From: an uncultured delta proteobacterium
GTDB lineage: Bacteria > Desulfobacterota > Desulfobacteria > Desulfobacterales > JAFDCJ01
DNA length: 64,000 bases
Assembly (NCBI GenBank): GCA_963769935.1
Contig: CAVYNY010000022.1
Location: 352,001-416,000, forward strand
Reading direction: 5' to 3'
A model generated the notes under the pieces. It was not told where the DNA came from and made no database searches. It saw only the letters and a program-made list of their open reading frames with translations. How positions within the stretch are numbered: position 1 is the stretch's first letter; the number at the start of each line of letters is the position of its first letter. A program made the position numbers and the translations under genes. Below are positions 39,656-60,549 of the stretch, in pieces.

Positions 39656-39961
39656 ATGAGTGAAGTGCGAATTAGTATACCAAAACATAAAATTGCTGAT
39701 TTTTGTAAACAAAATCAGGTCCGCAGATTATCTTTGTTTGGTTCGATACTTAGGGAAGACTTTGGGCCGGACAGTGATATTGATATCCTGGTGGAGTTCG
39801 AGCCCGGCACCCGGATGGGACTCATCCGGCTATCCGGATTGGAGATTGAGCTTGGTAAAATAATCGGACGCAAGGTCGATTTGAATACCCCTGGGTTGCT
39901 GAGTAAATATTTTCGCGACCAGATTCTTGCTGAGGCAGATGTGCAATATGACGCAGCATAA
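39656..39961 (+). CDS. Minimal nucleotidyltransferase (MntA-type antitoxin)
   Basis: 'LFGSILR..DSDIDILVEF', 'RKVDL'. Confidence 0.9.
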   Translation: MSEVRISIPKHKIADFCKQNQVRRLSLFGSILREDFGPDSDIDILVEFEPGTRMGLIRLSGLEIELGKIIGRKVDLNTPGLLSKYFRDQILAEADVQYDAA

Positions 39962-40375: not shown

Positions 40376-41305
40376 TCAGCTCTCCGCTAATCTCTTCAAC
40401 GAATACATCCCATCTAACCCCTTGATCGGTTTGGGTTTTTTCTCATGTTTTGAGAAAAATAGATGTTTAAACCGCTGGTAATTTTTAGCCACAAATACCT
40501 TTGATCCAATAATTCCCGAATCTGTAAAATAGCGGGTGCGGTATCTGAACCGATCGCTTTTGCTGAGTTGAAATTCTCTGCGGCGCTCCTTTGCCAGCAC
40601 CTTGTTTTCAATAACCTTCGCGTTGCCTTTCTCTGGCTGGTTCAGCGCTCCTGCCTCATAGACATACCGGCGGTATCTTCTGATGCGCTCTTTTTTGCTT
40701 TTGACATTAAATTCCTTTAAACCAAAATCTGTAGATAAAAAGCTGTCCCGGTTGGTGGTCTGGATATGGTAGCCCAGTGAATTCCAGCGGTATTGTTCCG
40801 GGAGCTCCACTATCCCGGCACGCAGGGGATTCAGATCGATATAGGCCAGGCAGTTGATCAGCGTCTCGCCGTTTTCAACGATCACGCTCTTAAAACGATC
40901 GCCCCAAAAGTAACCCCGCCGGTGGTGGCGCCGGTTGTAAAACCGGGCAAAGTTAACTTTGATTTCTCGCATAAATTCAGAAAGACTGGATAGTTTTTCC
41001 CGCAATGATGACACCAGGCCTTCTGCGAAAATGCGCTCATCCCCGTAAAAATCCACATAGCGATTTAGAATATCCTTGTCTGTAAACTTGTGCTCAGGAA
41101 ACATCCTCACCAAGATATGGAAATGATTTCCCATCAAACAGAATCCTAATATCTCGACTAAATAAAGGGTAGCGTAACGCCTGATCAGATCCAGCATAAA
41201 ATCTTTTTCGACGTTGCCCAATGGAAAGCCGTCCAGGGCGGTTCTGGACATAACGTGATAAACGGTGCTTTGATCATCAATGATCATTCGTTGCGTTCTG
41301 GGCAT
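40376..41305 (-). mobile_element. Y1 HUH transposase, REP-associated (RAYT-like)
   Basis: 'YHVMSR', 'MGNHFHILV', 'FWGDRFKS', 'YIDLNP', 'YRWNS'; start MPRTQR after AAGGAG. Confidence 0.85.
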
Positions 41306-41446
41306 GATATGCTCCTTTTCTTTTTTATTGATTGTGACTTCCATTGCACATGAATTGATATGTGTCAAGCATAAAGTACCTGTCCCCTATTCTCTTTCTG
41401 CCGGCCAAGTGGTTTCAGATGACCGGTCAATGGACAGAAAGATAAA

Positions 41447-42004
41447 GATAAGAAGTTGCTTTTCCGAAGCGGAAGAATCGGAAAAGGTTAATTGTGTGCC
41501 GGAATCAGCTTCCGACTTCGCTCTTCGAGCTACGACGGGACAAGGCAACTCAACATATTGAGGCGTCAATTAAACGGACCAATGACCATCCAGCTAACGG
41601 AAGCGGGCTTTGTTGTCAATATCGATTTTTGGAGGTGGAATTGAGAACTTGGGCAAATTCGGACATAGCTCACCGTTTTGCCCGCAGCTTGATTTTTTTA
41701 AAGGTAGGCTCCCGTCTTCGTTCTTCGAACTACGCCGCGACAAGGCAACCGGATAATCAGCATCGATGATGTAACGTGTCGCGCCGAAGCAAATGGACAG
41801 TAGGCGGACGTGTCACGCCAAAGAAGCAAATCCGCAGCTGGAACTTATCGTGACGAAAATAGCGAAGGCGGATCATCCGCGCCGGGCGATGAGGATTCGT
41901 CATATAAGATGAAGGATTCGGTCCGCCTCCGGCGGATTGGCTCGCGGAGGCGGTCTGTGTTTAACATCCCATAAGTCCAGGTGCTTGAGGATTTTTTTGA
42001 CGAG
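41447..42004 (-). mobile_element. IS91-family 3' remnant (transposase tail plus oriIS-like end)
   Basis: 41907-42004 matches the transposase tail at 47582-47675; minus strand ends AGCAACTTCTTATC; 41447-41699 is homologous to 59395-59739. Confidence 0.7.
41511..41544 (+). repeat. 34-nt hairpin mini-element (other copies 41711-41744 and 59484-59517)
   Basis: TCCGACTTCGCTCTTCGAGCTACGACGGGACAAG, identical at 59484-59517. Confidence 0.85.
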
Positions 42005-56288: not shown

Positions 56289-56537
56289 ATGCTGCGAACT
56301 CAAATTCAGATTGAAGAGGATCAAATTAAGTGGCTTAGAAATACGGCCAAGGAGAGAGGTGTGTCGGTATCTCAATTAATCCGCGAAGGGGTTGAATTTT
56401 ACCGTAAATATGAGGACCGGCTTCCTGAAGATAAAAAAAAGAAAGCCCTGGAAGCAATCGGGCGTTATGCTTCAGGTGTTTCTGACATATCTGAAAGGCA
56501 TGATGATTATCTGGCTAAAGCTTTTAAAGCAGGGTAA
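56289..56537 (+). CDS. CopG/RHH antitoxin (VapB-like)
   Basis: 'RTQIQI', 'GVSVSQLIREGV', 'SERHDDYL'; upstream of a PIN gene. Confidence 0.85.
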   Translation: MLRTQIQIEEDQIKWLRNTAKERGVSVSQLIREGVEFYRKYEDRLPEDKKKKALEAIGRYASGVSDISERHDDYLAKAFKAG

Positions 56538-56541
56538 AGAC

Positions 56542-56964
56542 ATGACAATTGAAAAAGTATTTATCGACACCTCAGCTTTTTATGCGTTGATGGACCGTTC
56601 GGATAGCTACCACCAATCAGCAAGCAGACTTTGGACCCATTTTCTTGACAAGGGTTATGAACTGAAGACGAGCAATTATGTTACGGTCGAAACTCTGGCT
56701 TTATTGCAAAACAGATTAGGCTTTGAAGCCGCCGATCTCTGGTCCCGAGATGTACTTGGTATTGTGGAATCAATTTGGATTCATGAAGTACTCCATAATT
56801 TGGCATTTGAAATTTGGTTGAGCCTTGGAAGACGGAAATTAAGCTTGGTAGACTGTGCAAGTTTCGTGGTTATGCGGCATGTCAAAGTGGAAAAAGTCTT
56901 TGGATTCGATAAGCATTTCACTGAACATGGCTTTGACGTTTTGAATGAGCGTGCCCTGCGTTGA
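56542..56964 (+). CDS. PIN-domain toxin (VapC-like)
   Basis: 'FIDTSA', 'E', 'SLVDCASF', 'FDKHF'. Confidence 0.9.
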   Translation: MTIEKVFIDTSAFYALMDRSDSYHQSASRLWTHFLDKGYELKTSNYVTVETLALLQNRLGFEAADLWSRDVLGIVESIWIHEVLHNLAFEIWLSLGRRKLSLVDCASFVVMRHVKVEKVFGFDKHFTEHGFDVLNERALR

Positions 56965-59373: not shown

Positions 59374-59394
59374 AGGGAGGGTCCTTTAAGGGAA

Positions 59395-59739
59395 GATAGG
59401 AAGTTGTTTATTCAAAGCGGATAAATGGAAAATAGTCAATTTGGTGTCGGTTTTAGCTGTCGACTTCGCTCACCCGTCGAGCTTCCGACTTCGCTCTTCG
59501 AGCTACGACGGGACAAGACGGCGGGACAAGACGGCGGGACAAGATGACGGAACAAGACGACGGAACAAGAGACAGCCCTACGTATTGAAGCGGCCTTTAA
59601 CGCAAACAATAATCACTTAAGTAATCACAGCAGGTTTTGATGTCAAGATTTGATTTTTTACGATGGAATTCAAAATACTGGTCGATTTGAGTCCCGTCGC
59701 CGGCGTGATTCACCGCTATGGCCTCAGCTGGATTTTTTT
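59395..59739 (-). mobile_element. Orphan IS91-family oriIS-like end containing nested mini-elements
   Basis: Minus strand ends AACAACTTCCTATC; collinear similarity to 41447-41699. Confidence 0.6.
59505..59569 (+). repeat. Five tandem 13-mers
   Basis: acgacgggacaag acggcgggacaag acggcgggacaag atgacggaacaag acgacggaacaag. Confidence 0.9.
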
Positions 59740-59857
59740 TATATAACTTGCGCCGAATTTTTTGAACTATAGATCTAACCTGACAAGCATAACGGCACCA
59801 TTATTTTTATGGAGAAGATGGCTTGACAACTTTATAATTGATGCTATGATGCTTTTT

Positions 59858-60124
59858 ATGAGAACAACATTAACCATAGATGACGATTTGGCGCGAGAAT
59901 TGCGGGAGAAAGCCCACAATACTGGGGCTCCTTTCAAAGAGGTCGTTAATAAAGCTATCAGGGCCGGTCTAGAGCATGTTGATAAACCCAAGCAGAAAAA
60001 ACCTTACAAGCTTAAGACCTATTCCCTTGGATATCCGCCCGGTGCAGATCTCGACCATGCATTGAATCTTGCAGATCGATTGGAATCGGAAGAAATCGCA
60101 CGGAAGCTCTCGTTACGCAAATGA
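59858..60124 (+). CDS. VapB-like antitoxin
   Basis: 'MRTTLTIDDDL', 'FKEVVNKAIRAGL'; ATGA overlap with the PIN gene. Confidence 0.85.
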   Translation: MRTTLTIDDDLARELREKAHNTGAPFKEVVNKAIRAGLEHVDKPKQKKPYKLKTYSLGYPPGADLDHALNLADRLESEEIARKLSLRK

Positions 60125-60549
60125 AACTTGTTGATATCAATTTGTTGATTTATGCCATCAATGAAGATGCCCCTCATCATTTTAAAGCCAAGAAATGGCT
60201 CGAGGATTCCCTGTCAAACGATGAACCTATCGGTTTTGCCTGGATCGTCATTTTAGGCTTCCTTCGAATTGTTACCAACGGCAGGATTATGCCGACACCA
60301 CTAATGCCTGAGGTTGCTATCGACTTTGTCAACGATTGGCTTCAGCAGCCGCCGTCTCTAACTGTTGTACCGACACATCAACACTGGTCAATTTTCAAAG
60401 AACTTCTCATGCCCCTTGGAACGGCTGCTAATTTAACGTCCGATGCCCATCTTGCCGCTTTAGCTATTGAACATGGAGCTCGTCTCTATTCTACAGACAA
60501 TGATTTCAGTCGCTTTCGAACGCTGCGGTGGACAAATCCGATAGAATAA
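60121..60549 (+). CDS. VapC-like PIN toxin
   Basis: 'VDINLLIYA', 'GFLRIVT', 'DAHLAALAIEHG', 'STDNDFSRF'. Confidence 0.9.
   Translation: MKLVDINLLIYAINEDAPHHFKAKKWLEDSLSNDEPIGFAWIVILGFLRIVTNGRIMPTPLMPEVAIDFVNDWLQQPPSLTVVPTHQHWSIFKELLMPLGTAANLTSDAHLAALAIEHGARLYSTDNDFSRFRTLRWTNPIE

Follow-up and report, generated by a model that had tools for sequence, protein, structure and literature searches.

A non-coding DNA unit of 30-36 nt with fixed ends, found in the 64-kb stretch analysed here (the window) and throughout its 8.0-Mb source genome (G000), is a real, very small insertion element, akin in behaviour to SDR repeats and to REP and IS605 ends, with a testable candidate enzyme. The analysis shows its ends, its empty and filled alleles, nesting at three sites within itself, covariation of its stem and association with one clade of GIY-YIG genes. 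Movement is likely to be as a folded single strand of DNA, with a single-domain Slx1-like GIY-YIG nuclease as the likely enzyme that cuts and rejoins it in trans. The more specific proposal, that a stand-alone Slx1-like GIY-YIG protein of ~85 residues is the transposase that takes out GNA-stabilised 30-36-nt ssDNA hairpins and puts them back at GN^A steps in other hairpins, is put forward tentatively.

The intact 34-nt unit at 59484-59517 (plus strand) consists of a 5-nt arm, the sequence CTTCG, a stem with a triloop, the sequence CTACG, a 6-nt arm and a CAAG tail, and an identical unit is located at 41511-41544 (plus strand), each directly after AGCT. A 34-nt variant at 41711-41744 (plus strand) follows GGCT and carries a compensatory, paired stem change, and two degenerate units, one of 34 nt (41775-41808) and one expanded to 64 nt (41809-41872), lie head to tail on the minus strand. 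An earlier note on this DNA had pointed out these copies, the last two as degenerate reverse copies at ~41776-41872, and the window sequence bears out its description. The intact units and the variant sit in a ~300-bp non-coding repeat, host repeat H. One copy (41441-41770, plus strand, limits approximate) carries the units at 41511-41544 and, at a second site, 41711-41744; the other is split by the 59.5-kb units into a left part at 59393-59458, ending in the AGCT flank of the target, and a right part at 59570-59740, its end approximate (both plus strand). Hairpin units gather in host repeat H, of which G000 has about a dozen paralogs. Its neighbours in the window are a PIN-domain (VapC-like) module, directly downstream, and a nearby nucleotidyltransferase module. 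Several modules of the window are toxin-antitoxin-like: PIN-domain proteins are encoded by two of the ORFs at 56392-56964, 60121-60549 and 39656-39961, and a minimal nucleotidyltransferase by the third.

Genome-wide, the 34-mer occurs in five exact copies and in 52 copies at up to nine mismatches, far above chance. A search with a more general grammar (5-nt arm, CTNCG, short stem-loop, CTNCG, 6-nt arm, CA(A/G/C)G) gives 71 units in G000, against 3-7 or 2-3 in block-shuffled genomes. ORFs of at least 150 aa make up 75% of G000, yet they hold only 3 of the 66 first-round units. The foot tag is CTTG in 47, CCTG in 24 and CGTG in 15 of 86 distinct parsed units, the parser having allowed only these three, and is CTTG in the window units. 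Viral contigs gave no exact match.

Alleles with and without the unit are present for three host repeats, H, J and K. Empty paralogs of host repeat H at C13:211.6 kb, C22:539.7 kb and C35:93.0 kb read GCT^GCA, the empty form of the site at 41511-41544, and filled copies carry the unit exactly at that point with nothing duplicated. Host J, a ~200-bp repeat with about 41 copies in G000, is empty in 17 of them, filled in 23 and doubly filled in 1; host K has five empty copies and one filled. Single units, rather than inverted doublets, make the difference between filled and empty alleles. The host-J insertion is 35 nt long, with one extra T, and is the exception to exact insertion; 23 copies share it, so that host J apparently multiplied after the insertion took place. 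Host J also interrupts the tmRNA-linked GIY-YIG gene introduced below, for example in L042 (C1:159.3-159.5 kb). The absence of target duplication that the earlier note had reported is thus confirmed with this one exception, and its reading of the unit as a minimal non-autonomous element is supported by the empty alleles and by nesting at CT^NCG.

Recursive excision of units from G000 and from 86 loci of relatives yielded 147 events in 51 context classes, from which the target sequence can be read. Base counts over the 51 contexts are G 36 at -3, C 29 at -2, T 36 at -1, any base at +1, C 33 at +2 and G 35 at +3; CT^ fits 26 of these independent contexts, CT^NC 24, CT^NCG 17 and RGCT^ 16. Insertion prefers (G)CT^NC(G), a sequence that the unit itself offers at three internal sites and at its left junction, all of them used. 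Insertion after (A/G)GCT, as originally suggested, was not borne out: RGCT was rejected as the target with its 16 fits among 51 contexts, and both AGCT flanks in the window are the same position of paralogous copies of host repeat H, and hence one target observation rather than two independent ones. The accompanying suggestion of self-insertion at AGCT|ACG fared better, as self-nesting at CT^ACG. Once loci fetched twice and one site used twice are dropped, 24 nested calls reduce to 19 distinct sites, every one of them at CT^NCG: the second internal site accounts for 13, the loop for 4 and the first site for 2, although a nested insertion would have been detectable at any of about 33 unit positions. 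Head-to-tail dimers fit insertion at the left junction, where CT^TC is recreated. At G000:C16, ~6.7-6.95 kb (minus strand), at least five units stand head to tail, followed by a three-level nest. Of the 51 contexts, 25 lack CT^, several of them in 7-8-mer arrays, and in L047, L049 and L321 a 30-nt subtype is inverted at exactly the CT^ACG bond; together with the extra T of host J, these cases are not explained by a single-strand, single-specificity model.

In the nest at 59.5 kb, between 59459 and 59569, two left halves (59459-59483, degenerate, and 59484-59504) precede a run of five right halves of 13 nt each, spaced 13 nt apart (59505-59569). The intact unit at 59484-59517 is the innermost insertion, with the minus strand as its predicted folded strand, and the degenerate left half at 59459-59483 (plus strand) belongs to an older outer unit split at its own CT^ACG; its loop is altered and may preserve part of a further insertion or have been copied from the right arm by template switching. 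The four further right halves at 59518-59569 (plus strand), made up of one identical and one near-identical pair, comprise at least one displaced outer right half plus, likely, slippage copies. Pure nesting is expected to leave equal numbers of left and right halves, so that two left against five right halves make a contribution from slippage probable. The earlier note had read the stack as repeated self-insertion. That reading stands for at least two nested insertions; the surplus right halves likely reflect 13-mer slippage or the loss of stacked left halves. Five insertions, one for each right half, were considered and rejected, given only two left halves here and two left and three right halves in the orthologous locus L002 of G022. 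One sequencing run (X3) weakly suggests one 13-mer fewer, from the loose end of a single contig at a depth of about 4. Among the contigs of seven distinct runs, none spanned the 59.5-kb locus and no excision joint was listed.

Covariation in the unit points to a DNA hairpin formed by the minus strand and containing three GNA motifs. In 57 distinct 34-mers the minus-strand loop, which the search left unconstrained, is G (52/57), any base, A (55/57). The inner stem pairs by Watson-Crick rules in 51-55 of the 57, with several, compensatory pair types at two of the three pairs, and the outer arm covaries as well. Opposite each other in this fold, as a GNA/GNA internal loop, lie the two CTNCG sites, which the search had fixed at every position but N. 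The minus strand is predicted to be more stable than the plus strand in 54 of the 57 sequences; nearest-neighbour folding energies of the units are no better than those of shuffles (z -0.1 to -0.8). The available text of one source describes GCGNAGC as a very stable DNA mini-hairpin (PMC13037366).

A candidate for the enzyme emerges from the neighbourhood of a small GIY-YIG clade. G000 encodes one intact member, an 89-aa protein with a PF01541 match (G000:C22:129194-129460, minus strand) behind a tRNA-Pro gene, and a second, interrupted gene behind tmRNA, and hairpins of the same grammar precede both. The CTWCG-pair motif occurs within 300 nt of 66 of 80 GIY-YIG relatives from many phyla, at a density of 38 per 10 kb near the genes and 1.4 far from them. 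In a second, class-level set it is found at 17 of 23 clade loci and at 0 of 5 weaker GIY-YIG matches. Across 103 GIY-YIG loci, CCAnn-CTYCG follows without a gap at 56 tRNA or tmRNA ends; a right half closes 48 of the 56, and in 42 of these 48 the displaced CCA then follows. We read the tRNA-end units, 33-153 nt in length, as beginning with CCA and as placed at the discriminator^CCA junction, so that the tRNA end is restored. The flanking hairpin of the GIY-YIG gene itself contains a nested 34-mer at CT^ACG in L047. A generic hot spot at tRNA ends was rejected: the motif lies downstream of only 4 of the 52 tRNA and tmRNA genes of G000, where three real units are found, two of which precede a GIY-YIG gene.

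The Tyr, Tyr, Gly, Arg, His and Glu positions, which are the catalytic residues of GIY-YIG enzymes, are conserved in 72-73 of 73 clade members, and a structure model (pLDDT 92) has Slx1 as its top fold match. At L072, L086, L094-L096, L100-L102 and L124, the GIY-YIG stop codon is followed at once by a second copy of part of the upstream hairpin module, which suggests that the gene lies between direct repeats. Two further GIY-YIG genes in Desulfobacterota relatives, L352 (G395:C560) and L351 (G445:C122), presumably encode Ssn-like proteins, one of them with an SRM motif beside it; the clade, itself selected by similarity, forms a separate branch from these two and shares 26% identity with one.

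The association extends to whole genomes. Among 300 genomes of the class, the GIY-YIG clade is found in 9 of 15 element-rich genomes and in 15 of 285 others, and it is present in all seven families concerned; the counts depend on thresholds (10 matches, E 1e-19) set after the data had been seen and on kin genomes that are not independent. Within the genus, among 60 close relatives examined, the gene does not discriminate (7 of 14 element-positive against 2 of 8 element-negative genomes). We infer from the local and genome-level association that this small clade is a much better candidate for the mover than the RAYT encoded in the window.

The strongest rival accepts a real mobile element and assigns its movement to another enzyme or to host nick-and-copy repair, so that the units at GIY-YIG cassettes would reflect shared ancestry or landing sites; we regard this as unlikely, though several observations are in its favour. 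The GIY-YIG clade was not found in 6 of the 15 element-rich genomes, nor in G015, with 16 copies, G008, G010 and G014 (incomplete assemblies). The short units of G000 are not adjacent to the GIY-YIG gene, none of their 60 clusters having a frame of the clade within 500 nt. The targets are heterogeneous, and units also land in unrelated REP-like hairpins, such as the CGTC-type (SRM-like) repeat and the GTAG-type REP that flank a Y1 gene at L393 (330-420 and 2120-2200). Against another enzyme, no other family tested has units enriched around it: besides the Y1 enzymes discussed below, the motif was within 300 nt of 5 of 30 GxxExxY genes and 1 of 30 four-helix-bundle genes, and the frames neighbouring the 60 clusters include no recurrent enzyme gene. 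As for host repair, the units have exact ends in hosts without shared flanks, a result that homology-dependent copying alone would hardly produce.

An HUH (Y1) transposase, either the RAYT in the window or another, could instead move the units by peel-and-paste of the IS200/IS605 type, a route that we judge improbable. The architecture does fit: according to the available text of PMC6006769, such elements combine a hairpin, a conserved left flank, a conserved terminal tetranucleotide and the absence of target duplication. HUH enzymes are able to cut as well as to join DNA. The window encodes P0001, a 309-aa Y1/HUH protein of RAYT-like type (40376-41305, minus strand) whose start lies about 205 nt from a unit. 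Of 86 distinct units, 21 have a 3' end like the end motif of the P0001 family, GGGACAGG; the other 65 lack a GGGACARG end. This motif, present in P0001 as GGGGACAGGTACTT on the minus strand at 41374-41387, stands about 80 nt before the start codon at 71 of 74 family loci and makes P0001 TIRYT-like: it is a long Y1 protein preceded by a GGGGWSAS-like motif, which resembles the TIRYT motif described in the available text of PMC3733652 and PMC6006769 (Di Nocera 2013; Quentin 2018, subclass 2.1). It differs from a TIRYT/TIRtron in that a matching downstream inverted (right-end) motif is found at only 1 of the 74 loci (among L125-L204).

The distribution of the units argues against P0001 and its kin. 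Of 80 P0001 relatives, 4 have the hairpin motif within 300 nt, which is the background density, and genomes of the class with such relatives number 1 among the 15 element-rich and 27 among the 285 others; seven genomes with 5-7 RAYT matches have 0-3 matches to the hairpin motif. At the genus level, RAYT is present in 9 of 14 element-positive and 4 of 8 element-negative genomes. Of 16 Y1 loci in G000, the one in the window is alone in having the pair motif within 300 nt upstream, its unit being inside host repeat H, and three have it within 900 nt downstream. In the five richest genomes, 6 of 26 Y1 loci have a loose motif within 800 nt, two of these being real units. Mobilisation by the nearby RAYT, which the earlier note had raised as a possibility, is not supported, given the 4 of 80 relatives, the 1 of 15 element-rich genomes and the separate end motif of the family, and P0001 is probably a bystander.

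Movement by way of RNA, copied back into DNA by a borrowed reverse transcriptase, a route reportedly proposed for cyanobacterial SDR repeats, appears very improbable: G000 has 10 RVT_1 matches (and 4 IS110 matches), and units at tRNA 3' ends would be transcribed, but the conserved GNA triloops and the GNA/GNA loop are DNA-type motifs, neither the RVT_1 nor the IS110 genes are recurrent neighbours of units, no reverse transcriptase family recurs beside the 60 clusters, and Rfam at gathering score matched nothing in the window except one tRNA. Least probable is an absence of mobility, with slippage and gene conversion among repeats producing the pattern. That reading has in its favour an unbalanced 13-mer array whose copy number seems to vary, and the 23 genome copies that ride in one host repeat (J). 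It is largely refuted, and survives only for the surplus 13-mers, since identical units occupy unrelated hosts for which empty alleles exist, and nests of up to four levels combine different subtypes whose outer arms match.

For the GIY-YIG nuclease, the following mechanism would account for movement. The minus strand of the unit, when exposed as ssDNA, would carry a C(T/C/G)TG tag at its 5' end and fold into a hairpin closed by a GNA triloop and interrupted by a GNA/GNA internal loop. By analogy with SsnA, the nuclease would bind this hairpin and cut at the end of the tag and at a GN^AG-like other end; it would then cut the GN^A step in another hairpin, where the released piece could be joined by strand transfer or host ligation. 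The hairpins beside the GIY-YIG genes could be the enzyme's own sites, on which the short units merely land. GIY-YIG enzymes are known as hydrolases, and we know of no joining activity in the family. Should the nuclease also join DNA, it would represent a new transposition chemistry and a very small tool for ssDNA insertion; should it only cut, it would define a clade of site-specific ssDNA nucleases with their own hairpin, apparently apart from Ssn. Elements this small carry almost no information. For the present family there are exact ends, a target rule derived from nesting at 19 sites, predictions of strand and fold, and an intact candidate enzyme of 89 aa.

Our literature search, in which subscription papers were under-covered, found no description of this hairpin family or of its link to GIY-YIG genes, and the available part of a bioRxiv preprint (10.64898/2026.09.22.753630) does not describe the hairpin element. 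Among known systems, the element resembles REP/REPIN-RAYT and IS200/IS605 in its ssDNA hairpin, foot tetranucleotide, conserved flank and lack of target duplication, and in having non-autonomous copies, with one enzyme gene serving many of them, as far as these systems are described in the available text of PMC6006769, PMC3733652 and PMC3116915. It departs from REP/REPIN-RAYT in its tag, which is C(T/C/G)TG rather than GTAG or CGTC, and in the lack of a cognate RAYT flanked by the repeats (a REPtron), with the motif near 4 of 80 P0001 relatives and real units at 2 of 26 Y1 loci in the richest genomes. What inserts here is one 34-nt hairpin on its own; in the available text of PMC3116915, REPIN singlets are treated as immobile remnants. 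CGTC repeats are said, in the part of PMC3733652 available, to be without a dedicated transposase. Like a non-autonomous IS200/IS605 element, the unit has a conserved flank and a terminal tetranucleotide and inserts without duplication, the extra T in host J being an exception; it has one hairpin instead of two subterminal hairpins shared with a TnpA parent, and no enrichment near Y1 genes.

A close parallel on the enzyme side is the Ssn family of nucleases (cd10448) with its NTS/SRM repeats, for which Chenal et al. (2025) suggest an origin in mobile elements (PMC11893778, available text). Both systems pair a single-domain GIY-YIG gene of ~90 aa with tagged hairpin repeats dispersed in the genome. 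In the same text, SsnA binds the tagged hairpin on one strand only and cuts ssDNA a few bases upstream, 5' of the tag; cleavage alone is shown for it, and the text available does not describe nesting, target sites or tRNA anchoring for Ssn (PMC11893778). The clade studied here differs in what appears to be a separate protein branch and in its flanks, where the SRM motif was found in 0 of 80 and 0 of 20 cases.

In behaviour the closest parallels are the SDR repeats of cyanobacteria. SDR1-8 of the Nostocaceae, from the work of Elhai et al. in 2008, are reportedly 21-27 nt long, occur in heptamer arrays and mini-transposons, and nest in themselves; we know of no enzyme for them. Going by that description, the two share a structured unit of less than 40 nt, exact insertion and nesting both in itself and in other small repeats. 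The present element is 30-36 nt long, comes from Desulfobacterota and has a GNA DNA fold and a candidate enzyme, whereas SDR repeats are reportedly 21-27 nt long, belong to cyanobacteria and reportedly had an RNA route proposed for them. The available text of PMC5861425, PMC3116915 and PMC2884548 presents SDR repeats as small dispersed hairpin-forming units that target a specific motif, with SDR5 inserting into HIP1. If the GIY-YIG protein is indeed the transposase, it would give this SDR-like class of smallest mobile elements a named enzyme.
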